A stretch of 64,000 nucleotides of DNA from Escherichia phage SR02. The position numbers and the translations under genes are program-made. The DNA is taken from sequence record OQ870566.1; one strand, 5' to 3'. Under the pieces are notes generated by a model. That model was given only the letters and a program-made list of their open reading frames with translations, was not told the DNA's origin and made no database searches. Of the stretch, positions 3,040-34,674 are shown one piece after another. Each line of letters starts with the position of its first letter. The first letter of the stretch is position 1.

Positions 3040-3461
3040 AAGCACTCAGTCAGCGATGACTTAAAACATCCCCGCTCTTTAAAAACTTATCATCTTGCCC
3101 TTTCGCAAAGATACACGCGAGATAAGGGAAAAGAATAAAAGAAGATGATAAAAAAGAGATTGCAAACGTGGTTAAGATAGTCCATACTAACCACAAGTTA
3201 ACAAAACAACGTTAACTAGTTCCCAAATCAACGTATCGCGGGAAAGGTGGCACATAGTGCGGCGAGTAGTTCAGGGTTAGGCGTCCTGTTAATGAATCAG
3301 TAAGCCTTCAATGCCATAGTGATTAGCAGACACTTTAAAAGGCTAACGCTCTTTAACAATATGAATCATAAGTTAAGCCTCACCGCTTAATCTTCAACCC
3401 AATAAAGCGGGTTGATATATCCTCCCAATAGCGGGAACGACGAAAAAAGATTAAAAAGTGG

Positions 3462-6664: not shown

Positions 6665-6687
6665 AGCCGCCTTTGAGCGGCTTTTTG
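6665..6687 (+). terminator. rho-independent terminator
   Basis: AGCCGC/GCGGCT hairpin + TTTTT. Confidence 0.55.
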
Positions 6688-6748: not shown

Positions 6749-6777
6749 TGCCCCGGCTACGGCTGGGGCTTTTTTTG
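6749..6777 (+). terminator. rho-independent terminator or leader attenuator
   Basis: GCCCCGGC..GCTGGGGC hairpin + TTTTTTT, 25 nt upstream of the HTH gene. Confidence 0.55.
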
Positions 6778-6801: not shown

Positions 6802-7101
6802 ATGAAAAACCCATTCGAGTTGATAAGTACAGACCCTGTAGAAATCAACATGCTTTCATTGAAGTCCAAGCTGATCATTATTCTTACGGAGTTGATCCGT
6901 GAGCAGGGGTGGTCACAACGTGTCGCAGCAGAGAAGCTAGGTGTTAGCCAGCCAAGGATTAGTAACCTTATGAATGGACAGCTTTCAAAGTTCTCCGTCG
7001 ATATGTTGTTGGAAATGGTTTTCAAGATGGGGTATAAGCTGGACATGAACTTCACTCCACTAAACACCAAGTCGCCACTGGCAATATTTGTAAAAAAGTG
7101 A
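6802..7101 (+). CDS. XRE-family helix-turn-helix DNA-binding protein (HigA/antitoxin-like fold)
   Basis: Motif QRVAAEKLGVSQPRISNLMNG typical of XRE HTH; ATG with RBS. Confidence 0.7.
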   Translation: MKNPFELISTDPVEINMLSLKSKLIIILTELIREQGWSQRVAAEKLGVSQPRISNLMNGQLSKFSVDMLLEMVFKMGYKLDMNFTPLNTKSPLAIFVKK

Positions 7102-7232: not shown

Positions 7233-7622
7233 ATGTTGACATTGACTATTTATTATGAGGCAGGGAATCAGCCAACCGCATGTAAAGCTATGGTTGCGGA
7301 TACCGTGATAAATAGAATGGCCCAACGAAAACTGACCGCTGAACAGGTGATAAGACAAAAGAACCAGTTTGAGTGGATTCCGGTACTATTAAAACAGGAG
7401 AAACCTTATAAACGTTATGTAAAGCTGATTCGTGATAAAAATCCGATGACTAAGCAGGCCATTGGAGAAAGCGAGCGACTTGCTAAACGTGCCCTTAAAA
7501 AGAATTATGTTCCGCTGTACAGTGGGACTTACTTTCAGAGTAAGAGCGAAGGGGTGCCAAAATGGTATGCCAATCCTATGTATTGTGGTGATTTAGTGTT
7601 CGATAATAGCTCTAGGGAATAA
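7233..7622 (+). CDS. cell wall hydrolase, SleB/CwlJ-like
   Basis: IYYEAGNQ...AVADTVINRM...QFEWIP pattern matches SleB-type hydrolase core; weak RBS. Confidence 0.55.
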   Translation: MLTLTIYYEAGNQPTACKAMVADTVINRMAQRKLTAEQVIRQKNQFEWIPVLLKQEKPYKRYVKLIRDKNPMTKQAIGESERLAKRALKKNYVPLYSGTYFQSKSEGVPKWYANPMYCGDLVFDNSSRE

Positions 7623-7821: not shown

Positions 7822-8118
7822 ATGACTTTAGAGGTATATAAATTCCTTTTTGTACTCTGTTTAACTGTCAGCGTTCTAGGATTTATTGTTCTAAGAAACA
7901 AAGCAGCAAGCTGGGAGAGAATGTATAAATCTCTAGTCCGAGTGGATGAGATGTATAATGAGAAAGTTAAAGCAACTCTTAACGATCTTATTATGCAAGT
8001 TGAAGACAGAAACAAACGTCTTCAGAATCTCAACCACGAAGTGTTACGCCTTGCTCGTGCTAACGAAGACTTGCGAGTGGCGATTGCTAAGCAGCAGGAG
8101 ATTAACAGTGAAAGTTAA
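7822..8118 (+). CDS. membrane-anchored coiled-coil protein
   Basis: N-terminal TM (FLFVLCLTVSVLGFIVL) then heptad-like region. Confidence 0.5.
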   Translation: MTLEVYKFLFVLCLTVSVLGFIVLRNKAASWERMYKSLVRVDEMYNEKVKATLNDLIMQVEDRNKRLQNLNHEVLRLARANEDLRVAIAKQQEINSES

Positions 8119-8155
8119 TATCATATCTGACCGATCTATTATACGTTTGAATAAC

Positions 8156-8341
8156 ATGAAGCCTGGGCTTTTATTCTCTTTAAAAGATACGCTTTATATT
8201 CGAACCAATTCAACTACTGAAAACTATGTGAAGTGTGTCAATGTTATTAGTGGAACCTTACAACCTTTAGATAAGGATGCAATTTGCTGGGTAAGGGATG
8301 ACCTTCACATAACCAATATAGAGGCTAAAGATGAAGATTGA
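8156..8341 (+). CDS. small protein, member of multi-copy paralog family
   Basis: Shares G-D-x-F ... V-x-L-S/T-G pattern with 8331, 8590, 12308, 12559, 12804, 13520. Confidence 0.4.
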   Translation: MKPGLLFSLKDTLYIRTNSTTENYVKCVNVISGTLQPLDKDAICWVRDDLHITNIEAKDED

Positions 8342-8585
8342 TCTTAAGGTAAATGAACCCTCTCTGTGTGTTGGTGATCTTAAACTTGGAGATGTATTCC
8401 AAATAAGGGAAACACGAGCAGATTTCTACATGGTTGTTCAACTGTTTAGGTCACAGGTTGAGGAGACTAAACCTTCTGATGGTGGTTGTGTCGTCCTCAG
8501 TCTAACAAACAAGCAAGTCCTTAAGCTCAGCCCAAAAAGTAAGGTTGTTCTTCTTCATAACGTTGTAATTACCAATAAAGGGTAA
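8331..8585 (+). CDS. small protein, paralog family member
   Basis: LKLGDVFQI ... VVLSLTNK; RBS present. Confidence 0.5.
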   Translation: MKIDLKVNEPSLCVGDLKLGDVFQIRETRADFYMVVQLFRSQVEETKPSDGGCVVLSLTNKQVLKLSPKSKVVLLHNVVITNKG

Positions 8586-8589
8586 GTAG

Positions 8590-8805
8590 ATGGAAATTAA
8601 AGTATCTGAACACAAGTATGCAAACATAGAAGATATTAAGAGTGGTGATGTCTTCTCTTACGATAAACGTTTCTGGCTGATGCTAGATGATGATCTCTCT
8701 AATGGACTACGTAGGGCTGCTGATCTAAGCACCGGTCATGTTGGTAACTTCAACCCATCATCCACTGTTATGCCTCGTCCTGATTTGCATTTGACTCAAA
8801 AGTAA
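8590..8805 (+). CDS. small protein, paralog family member
   Basis: IKSGDVFSY ... ADLSTGHV; RBS present. Confidence 0.5.
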   Translation: MEIKVSEHKYANIEDIKSGDVFSYDKRFWLMLDDDLSNGLRRAADLSTGHVGNFNPSSTVMPRPDLHLTQK

Positions 8806-9163
8806 CACCGACTTATAGCCCTTGTGTCTATCAGAGGGCTATGTGAGGGTGTTCCTCATTAACTTATTAATTCAGGCATATGCCACACCGCTAGGGAGAG
8901 CTTGCTCAAACATCCGGTGCTAGACTAAAACCTGTTAATTTTCGAAAGACTTTCTGATATGTAGGGGTACATATTAGTTTGGGATTCAGGAGACTTCCTA
9001 GGGGTAGGGAGTCTTCACCAGTTGGAATAAGAGATAGCTCTAGAACCTGAACTCTTAGGCAGAGAAGGTCGGCAATGAGTACGCGGTCAGGATTAGTCTA
9101 CTGACTAGGGCTATCCCTTATATCAACTGGCAATAATGCCTCCACTAACAAAGAGAGATAGGT

Positions 9164-9304
9164 ATGAAAGTATCAACCAAACGTATGAACCGCCCTGAAC
9201 GTATGGATGCAGTAGCTAACGGTGCTCTGAAACTGGAAGGCTTCTGGATTCATGCAATGTCAGCCATCCGTAGTAAGCAAGGTAATTGGACATATAACAG
9301 TTAA
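9164..9304 (+). CDS. hypothetical 46-aa protein
   Basis: ATG with GAGATAGGT RBS; below ORF-track size cut-off. Confidence 0.35.
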   Translation: MKVSTKRMNRPERMDAVANGALKLEGFWIHAMSAIRSKQGNWTYNS

Positions 9305-9311
9305 TAATTAA

Positions 9312-9345
9312 AAGGCTGCCCAATCGGGTGGCCTTTGTTGTTTTA
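9312..9345 (+). terminator. rho-independent terminator (same family as 35472)
   Basis: AAGGCTGCCC-AATC-GGGTGGCCTT + TGTTGTTTT. Confidence 0.55.
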
Positions 9346-9443
9346 GGTAAATCACCTTTAATTGCTTTTCCCATCTGCATTCCACATGAATGAGTGCAGC
9401 AGTGATTGGGGTGGTTTACCTAAACTAACAAGAGGAAGCTAAA

Positions 9444-9620
9444 ATGTCTAAGCAAACAATCAAACATACGCAAGCTGGTTACTCTTATGTTAACTCTCCT
9501 TGCTGTGGTGCTCGTGTTAATCTGGTTAAAGAAGAGGTTCGTATCGTTCAGCGTGGCGCTACTGTTGTTCGTTCATGTTGCGTCTGTGGTAATGATATTT
9601 TTATTAAAGGTAAAGTATGA
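9444..9620 (+). CDS. 58-aa Cys-rich (zinc-ribbon-like) protein
   Basis: Strong AGAGGAAG RBS; CC..CCVC motifs. Confidence 0.5.
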   Translation: MSKQTIKHTQAGYSYVNSPCCGARVNLVKEEVRIVQRGATVVRSCCVCGNDIFIKGKV

Positions 9621-9868
9621 AAAACTTTCAAGCTGCACCAATCACTAAAGTGATCGAAGTTGACGGTGTAATGATGACTGTTCCTCTGAACACTCGTTAC
9701 ATTGCAATTGACAAGATGGGCTATGTATGGGCTTGGAAGATCAAGCCTAGTTATAACGCACTGTTTGATGAGTTTGTTTGTACTGGTACTTACAGTCCTA
9801 CATTCTTGGGTTTATTTGGAGAGTTTGATGGTAAGCATAAAATCATCACTCTCCCTGCTTGTGCTTGA
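9617..9868 (+). CDS. hypothetical protein
   Basis: ATGA overlap with upstream ORF. Confidence 0.5.
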   Translation: MKNFQAAPITKVIEVDGVMMTVPLNTRYIAIDKMGYVWAWKIKPSYNALFDEFVCTGTYSPTFLGLFGEFDGKHKIITLPACA

Positions 9869-9875
9869 GGTTATT

Positions 9876-10040
9876 ATGTTCAAGTGGTTTAAACGTTTCT
9901 TCCATCTCCATGATTGGGAGACAATAAAAGAAATTCGTTTACACATACATAATGAGATTGGTCAAATAGAAGACACAGGTACTCGTTATATACTTCGATG
10001 TAAAACATGTGGTCATATCACCAAGCGAGATATGATCTAA
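9876..10040 (+). CDS. hypothetical small protein with CxxC
   Basis: TGAGGTTATTATG initiation context shared with 11007. Confidence 0.4.
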   Translation: MFKWFKRFFHLHDWETIKEIRLHIHNEIGQIEDTGTRYILRCKTCGHITKRDMI

Positions 10041-10048
10041 ATAATTCT

Positions 10049-10124
10049 GCGCTCTTAGCTCAATGGATAGAGCAGTAGCCTTCTAAGCTATTGGTTACAG
10101 GTTCGAGTCCTGTAGGGCGCACCA
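10049..10124 (+). tRNA. tRNA-Arg(TCT): tRNA-Arg (anticodon TCT)
   Basis: Hand-folded cloverleaf: acceptor GCGCTCT/AGGGCGC, D-arm GCTC/GAGC, anticodon loop CTTCTAA, T-arm ACAGG-TTCGAGT-CCTGT, encoded CCA. Confidence 0.85.
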
Positions 10125-10129
10125 CATTT

Positions 10130-10245
10130 AGGGCTAGTATGGGTGCGGCACCAGAGTTAGTGTATCCCTGTTGAGGCGAGTGCTTTTATAACAGTGGGAA
10201 TTACTTTCTTAGTGAGCTTCTGGTTCGATTCCAGATAGTCCACCA
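10130..10245 (+). other. tRNA-like fragment (canonical T-arm plus 3' acceptor half) without a foldable 5' half
   Basis: TCTGG-TTCGATT-CCAGA followed by TAGTCCA-C; no matching 5' acceptor strand within tRNA distance. Confidence 0.2.
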
Positions 10246-10263
10246 AATTAAGTGAGAGGTATC

Positions 10264-10440
10264 ATGGGTAATAAACTTTTAGTTATCTCCATAACTGAAG
10301 TCAATCAAAAACTACAATCAAAAGTTAGAACCCTAGTCTTCTTAGATGAGGAAGAAGGTAGGGATTTTATTGAGAATTCCGGCAAAACAATAATCTCTGT
10401 TGAACTGGCCGAGGTTATGTGCTCTTACAAAGCTTTCTAG
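10264..10440 (+). CDS. hypothetical small protein
   Basis: ATG with GAGAGGT RBS. Confidence 0.4.
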   Translation: MGNKLLVISITEVNQKLQSKVRTLVFLDEEEGRDFIENSGKTIISVELAEVMCSYKAF

Positions 10441-10449
10441 GAGGTAATT

Positions 10450-10749
10450 ATGAGTTGGGGTGGTGTAATATCCTTAATCTGTATCTTCCTTGTCTGTATA
10501 GCCCTTACAGGCTGCGTACAGAGTCGTCCTGATGGATGGTGTGCAGTAGCAGTGGAAGGTGTTTGTGTTTCTCGCTGGCATAAAGGTAAGAAGGTTCCTT
10601 CTGGTGAAATTGATATGCGCTGGAACGGAGCAACCTGCTCTAATGCTAACCCTTCTATCAACGAAGAGAAATCTACACCGGATAATGTTGTGATTGATAC
10701 AGCGTTGTGGTGTGGTGGCTCTGTAACAACAACCGGTAAGGAGTGGTAA
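10450..10749 (+). CDS. lipoprotein (candidate superinfection-exclusion type)
   Basis: AGGAGG RBS; signal peptide with lipobox ALTG-C. Confidence 0.6.
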   Translation: MSWGGVISLICIFLVCIALTGCVQSRPDGWCAVAVEGVCVSRWHKGKKVPSGEIDMRWNGATCSNANPSINEEKSTPDNVVIDTALWCGGSVTTTGKEW

Positions 10750-10750
10750 T

Positions 10751-10999
10751 ATGACAGCTCATTATTGGAATACAAAGAAGCTTCTTGAAGAGATGGCTGG
10801 GGGTAGTAGAGTACAGCTAATCTCTATGCTTCGAATGGATGCTCGCTCTTTACGTTTTCAAGTAAAGATTGGTAACTTTAGTGATGGTCTTTATTACACA
10901 CTGAAGGAAAGAATTAAGAAGACTCACTTTATTATGTACGGAATCAAACCGAGAACGTATGTTAACTACATGTATTGGGATACATGCTACGATAATTGA
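10751..10999 (+). CDS. hypothetical protein
   Basis: AAGGAG RBS. Confidence 0.5.
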   Translation: MTAHYWNTKKLLEEMAGGSRVQLISMLRMDARSLRFQVKIGNFSDGLYYTLKERIKKTHFIMYGIKPRTYVNYMYWDTCYDN

Positions 11000-11006
11000 G
11001 GTTATT

Positions 11007-11228
11007 ATGTTATTTGAAGCTAAGCAAACATTACCAGTAGTTCCTTTGTCTACACTTCTTAGTGGGAGTGCTTTTAGACATGATAATGGTTTTTGGATTA
11101 AGGGCGACCAAGAGGTTGGAGGATATATTACCTGCATCAACATCTGCAACGGCGTTGTTGACGGATTTCGTCCAGCCGCTGAAGTCACTCCTCAATCCAA
11201 CGCAAAGGTTGTAGGTTTGGTATATTAA
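11007..11228 (+). CDS. hypothetical protein
   Basis: GAGGTTATTATG initiation context. Confidence 0.45.
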   Translation: MLFEAKQTLPVVPLSTLLSGSAFRHDNGFWIKGDQEVGGYITCINICNGVVDGFRPAAEVTPQSNAKVVGLVY

Positions 11229-11237
11229 GGAGTTCAT

Positions 11238-11411
11238 ATGAGCTGTTTTGGTGGCGGTGAAGTAGATGACGATGATGACATGGAATCCAACGGTACATGT
11301 CCTGATTGTGGGTGTGAGACATGGGATGGGGTGTCTGTCTATCCTGTCTGTAGTTACTCACCAGTGATTTGTAAAACATGTGGAGATCAACCTTGTGATC
11401 AGTCCTGTTAG
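11238..11411 (+). CDS. 57-aa acidic Cys-rich protein
   Basis: AAGGAG RBS; CPDCGC, CKTCGDQPC motifs. Confidence 0.45.
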   Translation: MSCFGGGEVDDDDDMESNGTCPDCGCETWDGVSVYPVCSYSPVICKTCGDQPCDQSC

Positions 11412-11412
11412 T

Positions 11413-11628
11413 ATGTTAATTGTTTACCTGATAGGTGTGGTGTTATCAGGTGTGTTTGTTAAGGTTGTTGATATTAAAGATGATCAAGTCTTCAGACATT
11501 GGAGCGGATATCCAAACCTCAGCAAAATAGCAATTGTCCTTTTCTTGTGGCCTATCATTGTTGCGTTGCTTATAATTATAGGACTTTGGACTTTGCTATG
11601 GGAGTTAATTCTTCCTGTCAAAAAGTAA
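11413..11628 (+). CDS. small two-TM membrane protein
   Basis: Hydrophobic segments; start overlaps upstream stop. Confidence 0.4.
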   Translation: MLIVYLIGVVLSGVFVKVVDIKDDQVFRHWSGYPNLSKIAIVLFLWPIIVALLIIIGLWTLLWELILPVKK

Positions 11629-11987
11629 GAGCTTATCGTGAAGGATTCTTACGAGAGTCCTTTGAGATAGGACTTCAGATCTCCTATCAAACTAACATTC
11701 ATGTAACTAGCCCATAAGGGCGTTACCCTTTAATAACCCAGCCCACTAAGGGGGCGGGAGTTTAGTGCTGGATTGGCTTTACGCTTATTCCTACAAAGGC
11801 AACCGATTGTTAGATCTTACATGCAACATTAATTAATAGGATAAGGGAGGATTCGTCCCCTCCCCCTATTCATAAACTATTAGGAGAGTACATTAGCTGA
11901 TTAGCTGTAGAAGGTAGGCCGATATCTACAGCGTGGCCCAGAGCTAGTGTGCTCCCCTGATAGTTTTAACATTTAATTGGAGGATGT

Positions 11988-12299
11988 ATGAAAGCACGAA
12001 GAACTATATGGACTCCGATGCAGATTGAAAATCTTCGGAGACTAATCAAAGAGTACTCGGTTCAAGAAGTTGCTCAGATTATGAATGTAACGGAGAATGC
12101 AGTTAATACAGCTTGCACTAAGTTCGGAATATCAAGAGCTGTAATCCGAGTTAAGTGGTCTAAAGAAGAGGACCAGTTCCTTATCCGTAATGCTGGGTTC
12201 ATGTCTATTCAGAGAATGGCTGACATGCTCGGTAGAAGTTATGCTGCTGTACAGAACAGGGCATGTATGCACCTTAACATTAGCCTCAAACTTAAATAG
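11988..12299 (+). CDS. DNA-binding protein with two tandem HTH (Myb/SANT-like) repeats
   Basis: Repeated W-x-x-E-x-x-L ... A-V-x-x-A motif twice; GGAGG RBS. Confidence 0.5.
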   Translation: MKARRTIWTPMQIENLRRLIKEYSVQEVAQIMNVTENAVNTACTKFGISRAVIRVKWSKEEDQFLIRNAGFMSIQRMADMLGRSYAAVQNRACMHLNISLKLK

Positions 12300-12307
12300 G
12301 AATCAAT

Positions 12308-12562
12308 ATGAAAGTTAACGAATTGAACAAAACTACCAAGACAGTGAAACTGCACACTCTGAAAAAGGGTGATACATTCCGTTTAGAGGAGAATGGACCA
12401 ATCCACATGGTCTGCACTGCTGAATCTACTAATTGGGTGGAAGTTGCACGAGATCGAGTAGTGTGTGTCAGGCTGGAAGATGGTAATCTGAGTGGTCCGG
12501 TCGAGGGTATTCCTGTTATCCCTGTTAAAGTTGAAGCTAACGTTATTAAGGGTTCTAAATGA
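12308..12562 (+). CDS. small protein, paralog family member
   Basis: LKKGDTFRL ... pattern; tandem with the next two. Confidence 0.5.
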   Translation: MKVNELNKTTKTVKLHTLKKGDTFRLEENGPIHMVCTAESTNWVEVARDRVVCVRLEDGNLSGPVEGIPVIPVKVEANVIKGSK

Positions 12563-12804
12563 AAATCATCCCTAAGAAAAAGGATAATACAGTAAAATTG
12601 GAAACAATTATTCCTGGAAATCCTTTCGTGGTTCAGAACGGAAGCGCCTCTCCTCAGTATTACATGAGGGTTGAAAATGCTTCTTGTAACATCCGTATAG
12701 CCAGTGGTTGGGTTCCTGTGGTAAACCTTTCCACAGGTGTACTATCTGTTAAAGGTCTTGACGATCAGGTAGAAATGATTCGTATGTCAGTGGTTCAGGA
12801 GTAG
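12559..12804 (+). CDS. small protein, paralog family member
   Basis: IIPGNPFVV ... VNLSTGVL. Confidence 0.5.
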   Translation: MKIIPKKKDNTVKLETIIPGNPFVVQNGSASPQYYMRVENASCNIRIASGWVPVVNLSTGVLSVKGLDDQVEMIRMSVVQE

Positions 12805-13058
12805 TGCATATGAGCATTATTAACATTAAAGTTAAAGACAAAGAGGAAAAAATCCTCCGTGTCAGAGATCTAAATATGTCAGATGTGTTTACTCTCCAAG
12901 AGTGCCAGAATCAAAAGGTTTATATGATGACAGCTAAAAGCAGGGGTTGTCAACCTGCTGGAGCTGTTAACTTAGGCACTGGAGAACTGCGTGTCATCTC
13001 TGGTGATATGGTTGTTGGTGAGAAGTTTATTAAGGCTGAAATCATCTTAACTTCGTAG
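12804..13058 (+). CDS. small protein, paralog family member
   Basis: LNMSDVFTL ... VNLGTGEL. Confidence 0.5.
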   Translation: MHMSIINIKVKDKEEKILRVRDLNMSDVFTLQECQNQKVYMMTAKSRGCQPAGAVNLGTGELRVISGDMVVGEKFIKAEIILTS

Positions 13059-13066
13059 GAAAACAA

Positions 13067-13183
13067 ATGAGACGTAAAGCATATTCTTATGACGATATGA
13101 TTAACCAGAAAGGCTTCGGTCAACGACAGCCTGACGGTTCAATTATCTGGTTCGTAAACGGACAGAAAAAGGTAGCTAAATAA
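13067..13183 (+). CDS. hypothetical 38-aa peptide
   Basis: AGGA RBS; very small. Confidence 0.3.
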   Translation: MRRKAYSYDDMINQKGFGQRQPDGSIIWFVNGQKKVAK

Positions 13184-13289
13184 GCCCTCTTCTCTCCTCC
13201 TTTTAGTACTATGACGCCTCTCTGTGGGCGGCCCAATTTGCGTAGGGAATTCCCTCTACGCAGCCATGACTTTTTAAGGAATTTCCCAT

Positions 13290-13523
13290 ATGTCTAAAGT
13301 AAGCGCAATCAATGCAATCCGTCAACCGTTCCAGTTCCAATCCAAATCAACCCAAACCTTCAGTGAGCCTAAGCAGATTCGCTTGGGTGGCACGGAGAAA
13401 ACTGTGTTCGATCTGGCTAAAAACAAGAGCGTTACTGTAGTTGATGGTGGCACTCTGGTTAACGTTTCACATCGTATCCGTACTGGCAAAACTGCCAAAG
13501 ATCGTGCCAAGAAAGGTGAATGA
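13290..13523 (+). CDS. small protein, possible paralog family member
   Basis: AAGGAA RBS; VVDGGTLVNVS. Confidence 0.5.
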   Translation: MSKVSAINAIRQPFQFQSKSTQTFSEPKQIRLGGTEKTVFDLAKNKSVTVVDGGTLVNVSHRIRTGKTAKDRAKKGE

Positions 13524-13789
13524 TGAAAGTAAAAAGAGCAAATGCTCCAATACCAAAAAAGGTCAGGATTGATCAAACGAAACCAGGTGAAGTTGTTCGA
13601 TTTATTGATAGTGAAAAACTCTACCTTGTGAGTAAACTGACCAATTTAGCATCTATCAGTGTTAACGATCCACTGATGCCACAACTCGTATACATAACCA
13701 ATCTTGATACTGGTAATGTTATTGACCTACGACCAGATACTCAGGTTGTTAGAGTTAAAGCTGAATGTGAATACATTGAGGATGTATGA
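13520..13789 (+). CDS. small protein, paralog family member
   Basis: TKPGEVVRF ... TNLDTGNV. Confidence 0.5.
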   Translation: MMKVKRANAPIPKKVRIDQTKPGEVVRFIDSEKLYLVSKLTNLASISVNDPLMPQLVYITNLDTGNVIDLRPDTQVVRVKAECEYIEDV

Positions 13790-14253
13790 TGATCAAGATT
13801 AACAAGAACGGATGGTTGCATAAGTTCAACAAAACCATGTCAGGTTTACCCAACTCTCATTGGGATAATATGACTAACTTTTGCGAATACTTCTGGCGTA
13901 CAGTGATGCACTTCATTGCACTGACGCTGCTGTTAGGGGTTGTATACGCTGCACTGTCCATGATTGGTGGCTCTTTCCTTGGACATGAGAATTTTTTGTC
14001 ATTCAATTGGTGGACATGGTTCACTGCTCCTGCTCTTGGTGCCTTATCTTTGGCTGCTTTGGCTGGTGTAGTGTTTGGTGGTGGTTGGGCATTTTATGAA
14101 CTTCGTGGAATATACCGTGACCACCGAACTAGCACATATGAAACTCGTGCTGAAAAGAAACGACGTAAGAAAGAGCGTCGTGATTCAAACTGGATTGTTG
14201 TGATGTATCGTAGCAAGAAAGAGAAATACTGTCCTTCAGTTAGGGTAGAGTAA
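13786..14253 (+). CDS. membrane protein (multiple TM) with basic C-terminus
   Basis: Hydrophobic segments; KKRRKKERR tail. Confidence 0.55.
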   Translation: MMIKINKNGWLHKFNKTMSGLPNSHWDNMTNFCEYFWRTVMHFIALTLLLGVVYAALSMIGGSFLGHENFLSFNWWTWFTAPALGALSLAALAGVVFGGGWAFYELRGIYRDHRTSTYETRAEKKRRKKERRDSNWIVVMYRSKKEKYCPSVRVE

Positions 14254-14468
14254 TGATAACACTTGTGTCGATCGTTTATAGAATACACTATCGTCTAGAC
14301 AAAGGTAAAACCTATAAGTGCAAGAGTAAGACAGGCAATAGATGCTCTGTAGAAAACAACTCTGGTCAATGGGTGGATGTACCTTGTTGTTGGTTCAGGA
14401 AAGATTTGACTAACAAAGAAATTGACGAAATCCTTAGTGATGATTTTGTAAAATCAGGTGATTTTTAG
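14253..14468 (+). CDS. hypothetical small protein
   Basis: Overlap coupling. Confidence 0.45.
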   Translation: MITLVSIVYRIHYRLDKGKTYKCKSKTGNRCSVENNSGQWVDVPCCWFRKDLTNKEIDEILSDDFVKSGDF

Positions 14469-34356: not shown

Positions 34357-34674
34357 ATGGCAGACCATGTAGGAAAGAGAGATTATGCACAAGAAAGACG
34401 TACCGCAATTGCCCGTGGTGAAACAGGCGTTGGGAGCAAGAGCGGAGATGCTCAGCGCCACCGTGCACGTCGCATCGTTGAAAAGCGCGATGGAAAAGCT
34501 GCTGTCAGAGGTAAAGATGTTGGACACAAACGAGCTGTCAAGTCTGGAGGCTCTAATGCGTCAAGCAACTTACGTGTTGAATCAGTCAGCTCAAACCGTT
34601 CAAACGGCGGCAAAAGTGGTGATCGAGCTGGAAAAGCAAACGGAGCTAGGAAGGGGGCGTTGAGTGGTTCTTGA
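34357..34674 (+). CDS. basic Gly/Ser/Arg-rich hypothetical protein (frame ambiguous; overlapping +1 frame ORF 34385-34663)
   Basis: Strong AAGGAG RBS 36 nt after TAATGTATA motif; the alternative frame encodes a more helical protein. Confidence 0.35.
   Translation: MADHVGKRDYAQERRTAIARGETGVGSKSGDAQRHRARRIVEKRDGKAAVRGKDVGHKRAVKSGGSNASSNLRVESVSSNRSNGGKSGDRAGKANGARKGALSGS

Follow-up and report, generated by a model that had tools for sequence, protein, structure and literature searches.

Why should a phage carry so many small, similar proteins within a few kilobases of its genome, and what could each of them be doing? The question is raised by positions 8,156 to 13,789 of the window, by which we mean the whole stretch analysed here, 64,000 nucleotides of Escherichia phage SR02 (sequence record OQ870566.1). 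A preliminary description of this DNA listed seven open reading frames (ORFs) of the region, and a probable eighth, as a diversified protein family typical of host-takeover or anti-defence effectors. In this work we have asked whether the family is real, which fold its members may adopt, how it has evolved and what it could be for. The window is a phiEco32/SU10-like podophage genome (Gordonclarkvirinae, Kuravirus), since the megablast matches of positions 8000-14000 to GenBank phages, 142 records, are nearly all kuraviruses of E. coli, Shigella or Salmonella. The closest records, among them SU10, ev_rybdy8, PGN6866 and phiEco32, are 88-95% identical across 66-83% of the query. Up to about 47 kb the genes are on the + strand; from there on they are on the - strand.

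Do these ORFs form one family at all? Pairwise comparison gives a poor answer. Identity is 14-24% among the candidates and 14-26% among the eight paralogs, single-sequence phmmer searches between them mostly give E values of 0.01-1, and the two motifs of the preliminary description, used as a regular expression, recover one member together with two unrelated ORFs, so that the expression is of no use as a family test. These are the observations which would speak for likeness by chance among short beta-rich ORFs, with no true family behind it. Because the pairwise E values are weak, profiles were needed to decide membership. Already in the phmmer searches, the top non-self matches of nearly every candidate among 639 window ORFs were other candidates. 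Each member matches its own PHROG profile and the PHROGs of other members at 1e-3 to 1e-9 (member 8 by cross-matches only), and these cross-matches unite PHROGs 6570, 7832, 7431, 8365, 16423, 9955, 12612 and 29867, all of which are matched by the window members and 132 family sequences. We then sorted 120 database orthologs into orthogroups, built hidden Markov models (HMMs) with one orthogroup left out at a time, and scored them against 1,278 ORFs and reversed decoys; the left-out member was always ranked first, at E values of 4e-8 to 4e-5, with the runner-up at 0.2 or above. When 136 small + strand ORFs were compared by hhalign with the 132-sequence family alignment, eight reached 98.3-99.2% probability and the remaining 128 stayed below 9%. 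The profile tests thus part the eight ORFs from the rest by 4-7 orders of magnitude. In the database search described below, each of the 112 distant small proteins examined (112/112) had a single-sequence match (E < 0.01) to some window paralog, and metagenomic intermediates therefore bridge the paralogs; the same structure is also predicted for two members. Chance likeness is refuted by the PHROG cross-matches, the leave-one-out HMMs and hhalign, and we give it next to no probability. We conclude from these profile comparisons that the eight window ORFs are true, anciently diverged paralogs of one family. The diversified multi-copy family of the preliminary description is thereby borne out; its motif strings were all found in the translations, and the alignment which it had proposed as a check reveals shared positions beyond chance.

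The eight copies, all on the + strand, are laid out as 3 + 1 + 3 + 1. Array A opens with member 1 (8108-8341; 77 amino acids (aa), GTG start), which matches phrog_16423 at 1e-32 and cross-matches phrog_6570, 7832 and 7431 (leave-one-out HMM E 5.5e-6, rank 1; hhalign 98.5%). The start previously assigned to it, 8156, is an internal ATG. GTG 8108 has GGAG 8 nt upstream, the database proteins begin MKVNI, and the GTG with its Shine-Dalgarno (SD) motif is kept in five of six kuraviruses (SU10, phiEco32, rybdy8, Ptacy1532 and KM01). Member 2 (8331-8585; 84 aa) shares 11 nt with member 1 and rests on phrog_9955 at 1e-34, cross-matches to phrog_7832 and 8365, a leave-one-out HMM E of 3.1e-6 and an hhalign probability of 98.3%. 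Member 3 (8590-8805; 71 aa) closes the array; it matches phrog_6570 at 3e-23, with cross-matches, has a leave-one-out HMM E of 4.3e-8 and is modelled by AlphaFold2 as an SH3-like barrel. Member 4 (11007-11228; 73 aa) is an isolated copy whose nearest paralog is member 3 (phmmer 1e-5); it matches phrog_6570 at 2e-24, with a leave-one-out HMM E of 2.5e-5 and hhalign at 98.9%. Array B is opened by member 5 (12308-12562; 84 aa), 8 nt 3' of a gene with two helix-turn-helix (HTH) repeats, followed by member 6 (12559-12804; 81 aa), which shares an ATGA overlap with member 5 and is supported by phrog_7431 at 7e-31, cross-matches and a leave-one-out HMM E of 1.4e-6. Member 7 (12810-13058; 82 aa) closes this array. 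Its start had been placed at GTG 12804, which is possible too, but ATG 12810 is more likely, as database orthologs begin MSIINIK; it matches phrog_12612 at 6e-42, with cross-matches, and has a leave-one-out HMM E of 3.1e-7. Member 8 (13520-13789; 89 aa, or 88 aa from ATG 13523) is a rare accessory copy flanked by the unrelated ORF 13290-13523 and a membrane-protein gene. It is recognised by cross-matches only (phrog_7832 at 4e-6, phrog_8365 and 29867), with a leave-one-out HMM E of 3.6e-5.

The seven ORFs first listed are thus all members, whereas 11007-11228 had been overlooked and the probable eighth, 13290-13523, is unrelated: it matches phrog_6662 only, reaches 0.2% in hhalign and does not score against the family HMM. 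This ORF (+ strand) encodes a very basic 77-aa protein (isoelectric point (pI) 10.6), a core early gene between hypervariable family members, whose product is 99% identical in six of six compared kuraviruses, with a ratio of non-synonymous to synonymous substitution rates (dN/dS) of 0.02. Two further ORFs that were listed by pairwise phmmer, 34373-34663 and 14253-14468, fail every profile test. Similarly, the two tandem arrays described at first are present as the three-gene arrays A and B, but the fourth and eighth copies stand alone. The junctions are tight: genes overlap by 11 nt at 8108 and 8331 and by ATGA at 12559, 13520 and 13786, with gaps of 4-8 nt elsewhere, and an SD-like motif precedes every member start, so that the translational coupling suggested earlier is reasonable.

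What kind of protein do these genes encode? The AlphaFold2 models of member 5 (25-sequence alignment; predicted local distance difference test score (pLDDT) 82.8, predicted template modelling score (pTM) 0.73) and member 3 (132-sequence alignment; pLDDT 86.5, pTM 0.72) are all-beta, and this structure prediction, also among the checks first proposed, gives the same fold for both. The predicted fold is an SH3-like/Tudor/KOW-like small beta-barrel of five strands; structure comparison finds five or six strands in a small barrel of about 60 residues. The family consensus reads MKI-x10-L-x2-L-x2-GD-x-F-x6-YM-x-T-x10-CVNL-x2-G-x10-V-x-PV, and the motifs L-x-x-L-x-x-G-[DN]-x-F, Y-M-x-T, C-V-N-L-x-T-G and V-x-P-V are found in proteins of 66-92 aa that start with M-K-[IV]. 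Four residues, G19, F22, G49 and V60 (numbered as in member 3), are at least 90% conserved over the 132 sequences and occupy turn and core positions of the predicted barrel, whose scaffold is made up of the conserved motif residues. The loop that joins strands three and four varies in sequence and in length, and the segment from YM-x-T to CVNL spans about 8-25 residues in the window proteins. A fold of this kind is typical of binding modules, as far as the models go. No catalytic or known-family signature is apparent in the sequences: Pfam and NCBIfam gave single stray matches only for the 132 family members, the PADLOC defence profiles matched none of them (0/132), and no sequence in the whole PDB scored below E = 1 in a profile search.

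The structural neighbours of the models comprise the C-terminal SH3-like domain of ribosomal protein L2, domain I of EF-P/eIF5A, Tudor and PWWP domains, and further the SH3-like domain of DtxR/IdeR, FeoA, VapX and the Tudor domains of UvrD/PcrA and CarD which bind the lobe of RNA polymerase (RNAP). Could the family then consist of KOW- or Tudor-like binders of nucleic acid, the ribosome or RNAP, which would adjust how phage or host genes are transcribed or translated, for instance by attaching to the beta lobe of RNAP like CarD and the C-terminal domain (CTD) of UvrD, or on the ribosome like the L2 and EF-P domains? The top neighbours are indeed translation-type SH3 barrels and RNAP-lobe-binding Tudor domains, array B lies directly 3' of the double-HTH gene, and early reprogramming of host RNAP is known from phiEco32 (PMC8948821). 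However, no match to the Pfam KOW, CarD_TRCF, Tudor or SH3 families was obtained for nine window ORFs at E <= 1 or for the 132 members at E <= 0.01. In net charge the window members are near-neutral (pI 5.6-9.0) and the family at large is acidic (median pI 5.2), values that speak for proteins rather than nucleic acids as the bound partners. It is also hard to rationalise why one conserved machine should need eight diverged binders, and LUZ24 gp7, a family protein considered below, is non-toxic. We therefore regard binding of nucleic acid, the ribosome or RNAP as rather unlikely. A VapX-type antitoxin was considered as well and rejected, there being neither an adjacent VapD-like toxin gene nor sequence similarity to VapX, and no cognate partner gene, whether VapD-like, FeoB-like or other, was found near the family genes.

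When are these genes expressed? By synteny, the eight-copy region is inferred to belong to the early gene cluster, the sigma70-dependent class. In SU10, coding sequences (CDS) 69-125 form an early block with sigma70 promoters in front (PMC4281155), and the family region of the window is syntenic to CDS 94-114 inside this block. The early cluster of phiEco32 was delimited by macroarray, and its genes are described as mostly of unknown function and likely to act in host takeover (PMC8948821). Orthologs of the window members are gp96-98, gp102 and gp111-114 in SU10 and gp95-98, gp104 and gp113-115 in phiEco32. Synteny with both early blocks agrees with the early location given in the preliminary description. 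All genes of the matching stretch in SU10 and phiEco32 are annotated as hypothetical, save a few doubtful automatic names.

The number of copies differs among close relatives. We compared the same 12-kb early region in seven kuraviruses and counted 8 to 11 copies: 8 in the window and in Bas91, 9 in SU10 and in phiEco32, 10 in Ptacy1532 and in KM01, and 11 in ev_rybdy8. This comparison, too, had been named as a check, and it turned out that allele content varies along with copy number. SU10 has an extra divergent copy, gp107 (L001 3500-3724; hhalign 90.7% against the family), which corresponds to gp109 of phiEco32 (L002 2693-2917) and is deleted in the window, where the 9444-9620 ORF is directly followed by the 9617-9868 ORF. 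In rybdy8 and KM01 a second copy resembling 11007 adjoins the first. Member 8 has no counterpart in the six compared kuraviruses, a 47-48% identical version is present in only two cultured phages, and another family member fills its slot in ev_rybdy8. Slot by slot, identities are bimodal: some relatives reach 93-100%, others 30-68%, often with saturated synonymous divergence (dS). Since dN/dS of the members against their best matches is 0.03-0.4, they are real genes under purifying selection. Taken together, the sequences point to an ancient set of paralogs whose make-up keeps changing as copies are gained, lost and replaced.

How far does the family reach beyond the kuraviruses? An exhaustive HMMER search over 1.84 billion cluster representatives (clusters at 50% identity) returned 1,819 representatives that match the family HMM at E <= 1e-3. 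Among the best 150 of these, 139 are proteins of 66-184 aa, of which 125 are stand-alone proteins of 66-103 aa beyond the sequences collected before and 14 are two-domain tandem fusions of 116-184 aa; 9 of the 150 are large proteins. Several giant proteins (P0141, P0148, P0203, P0205, P0207, P0211, P0253 and P0263) were not counted, as they score by the sum of numerous weak, partial repeats; one of them, the highly biased NHL-repeat protein P0148, is an artefact. A word-indexed search with distant members alone found 12 proteins, and tblastn of a distant member, P0131, found nothing in cultured phages. Foldseek against predicted viral structures (BFVD) returned same-sized ORFans of many lytic Gammaproteobacteria phages. 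Three proteins of model phages match the family HMM, N4 gp21 (E 4e-18), LUZ24 gp7 (E 2e-14) and PaP3 ORF.65 (E 6e-11), with one clear copy per phage; N4 gp21 and PaP3 ORF.65 are also among the Foldseek matches in BFVD. LUZ24 has an unannotated ORF (L013 5100-5333) with E 1e-4 against the family HMM, and gp8 (3058-3333), which adjoins gp7, has a weak E of about 1 and the motif L-E-P-G-C-L-Y-I-F; both are possible further members, judged by their sequences.

Tandem rows of the domain are found outside the kuraviruses as well. An unrelated 17.5-kb metagenomic phage contig (ENA ERZ27271064 k141_128833) carries seven members head-to-tail (L003 6815-8387), and tandem expansion of the domain thus occurred more than once. 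Might the proteins then act jointly, as subunits of homo- or hetero-oligomers like R67 dihydrofolate reductase or Sm/Hfq-like barrels, for example as a small-molecule sponge or a scaffold? Natural two-domain fusions are common, as the 14 cases above show, and tandem, translationally coupled genes favour co-assembly. Against this, N4, PaP3 and LUZ24 each have one clear copy, and members are gained, lost and replaced independently, so we consider joint action very unlikely.

The more credible of the large-protein matches appears to be P0142, a protein with a SprT-like metalloprotease domain (HExxH) from a Tenacibaculum metagenome-assembled genome (L014 5001-6434), in which five C-terminal repeats resemble the family domain. 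The repeats match profile positions 3-67 with 90 bits summed and 15-22 bits singly. P0142 is a cellular multi-domain protein, unlike the phage members, and the link rests on the summed score. By analogy, its repeats suggest a targeting or binding role and prove nothing for the phage proteins. A family member is also encoded three genes 3' of a SprT-like gene in a metagenomic phage (L004 8932-9453; L005 3613-4134). A functional link of the family to SprT-type proteases is possible on the strength of these sequences.

What, then, is the role of these proteins? The reading that we favour is a composite one, and we hold it tentatively, as slightly more apt to be wrong than right. The copies would be non-toxic, partner-specific binding modules that have multiplied by tandem duplication and recombination and are directed at variable, non-essential host targets, with defence systems as the leading candidate. 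Early in infection each copy, a soluble and non-enzymatic module, would bind a partner protein of its own in stoichiometric fashion. Tandem duplication would enlarge the arrays, a step supported by the two-domain fusions and the independent seven-gene array, and recombination between co-infecting relatives would reshuffle them, which would let the phage track variable host factors. That the targets might be non-essential factors such as defence systems is suggested by the non-toxic LUZ24 homolog and the high turnover of the genes.

The only experiment touching the family is a screen of 13 early LUZ24 proteins, gp7 (77 aa) among them, that were produced in P. aeruginosa; only gp4, gp6, gp9 and gp11 inhibited growth, and gp7 was negative for toxicity and for biofilm effects (PMC4635203). 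This result bears on the classical view of such genes, in which they are host-takeover effectors that cause a toxic shut-off by inhibiting essential host proteins. Their small size and early region fit such a role, as does the idea that early genes of the phiEco32 type serve host takeover (PMC8948821). However, gp7 lies outside the four growth-inhibitory proteins, and high turnover with slot replacement suits variable targets more than essential, conserved ones. We find a toxic shut-off improbable, and the toxic host-takeover half of what was first proposed is disfavoured accordingly by the gp7 screen. Counter-defence, or another conditionally useful modulation of the host, seems more likely than general shut-off, because the tested homolog is non-toxic and kuraviruses resist most tested defences without a known inhibitor.

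Several points weigh against partner-specific modules aimed at host defence. Other ligands of SH3-like barrels include RNA, DNA, ribosomes and small molecules, and dispensable genes of any function are also expected to vary in copy number. The non-toxic homolog is a protein of a Pseudomonas phage, with about 20-25% identity. No match to a known anti-defence or defence-related family was obtained for any member in Pfam, NCBIfam or PADLOC. The link to defence resistance is circumstantial: kuraviruses were found to be sensitive only to Fun/Z, and for their resistance the authors of the BASEL study propose a DNA modification instead (PMC11990801). A bolder version of our proposal would make the family a widespread SH3-like phage counter-defence superfamily of about 1,800 clusters, N4 gp21 and LUZ24 gp7 included, whose 8-11 copies would explain the resistance of kuraviruses to restriction-modification and nearly all tested defences. 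We consider this version quite unlikely.

The early region contains a second element that drew our attention, a 358-nt ORF-free spacer (8806-9163, + strand) directly 3' of array A. It has equal length, no indels and a mean column identity of 98% in seven kuraviruses, whereas the flanking genes are 54-67% identical at the protein level, and it is found in 124 phage records. Its folding is more stable than that of shuffled sequences (z = -2.9). With nine sequences, including 83%-identical relatives, RNAalifold predicts 86 pairs, of which 14 have compensatory double changes; many G-U pairs are invariant, which indicates a + strand RNA. Rfam gave no match even at E <= 5. The spacer looks like an undescribed structured RNA or a cis element of the early operon, and we put it forward as a candidate on the basis of its conservation and predicted folding. 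An optional insert of 67 nt (9041-9107, + strand) sits at a helix tip of the spacer and is missing in Bas86, Bas88 and O18-011. It is about 80% identical to the leader found 40-105 nt upstream of an N-like antiterminator gene in P22-like phages such as Salmonella phage BTP1 (L017 1501-1567), with a 23/23 identical core, TCGGCAATGAGTACGCGGTCAGG. Perhaps the insert is an antitermination or RNA-processing module common to unrelated phages. Within the early operon, the spacer and the small ORF 9164-9304 are closely followed by a terminator-like hairpin with an 11-bp stem (9311-9336, + strand).

Other genes of the early region also lie on the + strand. The double-HTH gene ahead of array B (11988-12299; Sigma70_r4_2, E 3e-7) is named 'D5-like transcriptional regulator' or 'endonuclease' in relatives. 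An HTH_37/XRE-type protein (E 1e-18) is encoded at 6802-7098, preceded by two strong terminator-like hairpins (6665-6682 and 6750-6769), and ORF 7233-7622, amid early genes and distant from the lysis module, contains a cell-wall hydrolase domain of the SleB type (Pfam Hydrolase_2, E 7e-8). The 98-aa ORF 7822-8118 is named 'DNA helicase' in several relatives. In its product a hydrophobic N-terminal segment is followed by a coiled-coil-like remainder; the name is likely to be wrong, since Pfam detects no helicase domain in it. Two small Cys-rich ORFs, 9444-9620 and 11238-11411, resemble mini-proteins of the zinc-ribbon or zinc-finger type; one has CC-x-n-CC-x-C pairs, and in the other CPDCGC...CKTCGD...C comes after an acidic, D-rich N-terminus. 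A tRNA-Arg gene (anticodon TCT; 10049-10124) lies within the early region, likewise in relatives, in some of which a homing/HNH endonuclease gene adjoins it.

What was already known is the SH3-like fold class, the existence of multi-copy ORFan families in early regions of phages and the PHROG clusters of the members. New is the recognition that one SH3-like superfamily spans about 1,800 clusters, including N4 gp21, LUZ24 gp7 and PaP3 ORF.65, and is present in kuraviruses in 8-11 diversified copies. No paralogous family in kuraviruses is described in the literature examined, and searches for the PHROG ids, N4 gp21, kuravirus paralog families and genome-wide phage essentiality screens yielded nothing on this family. 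The gain is a simpler picture of phage early genes, most of which are unexplained ORFans: at least eight 'unknown' PHROG families collapse into one fold and one superfamily, and eight genes of a therapy-relevant group of E. coli phages (Kuravirus) are tied to genes of the model phages N4, LUZ24 and PaP3. The 8-11 related genes identified per genome are open to joint deletion or expression. Should the copies have different host or defence proteins as their partners, the family would supply natural inhibitors in compact form and a candidate reason for the insensitivity of Gordonclarkvirinae to bacterial immunity. Otherwise they would still illustrate clearly how a small binding domain is expanded in tandem and replaced in cassette-like fashion.

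How does the family compare with known systems? Towards L2, EF-P/eIF5A, Tudor/PWWP, DtxR/IdeR, FeoA, VapX and UvrD-CTD/CarD the sequence identity is 5-20% and the likeness is at the level of the fold class only; the structural scores define that class, and homology to these neighbours is not established. The PHROG collection keeps the eight profiles apart, each as 'unknown function', whereas their cross-matches reveal one superfamily. N4 gp21, LUZ24 gp7 and PaP3 ORF.65 have the same size and motifs as the window members and lie in early (LUZ24, PaP3) or early-to-middle (N4) regions, but these uncharacterised proteins occur in one clear copy per phage, against 8-11 in kuraviruses. Known anti-CRISPR and anti-restriction loci consist of small early proteins and usually mix unrelated families. 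No profile match to Pfam-listed anti-defence domains such as DUF2829/Tad2 was found, and the family thus differs from those loci in matching no described anti-defence family. It resembles them in the small size and early position of the proteins, in how quickly close relatives gain, lose and replace the genes and in the lack of an enzymatic signature, while it follows a different plan in building its arrays from one fold in 8-11 copies.

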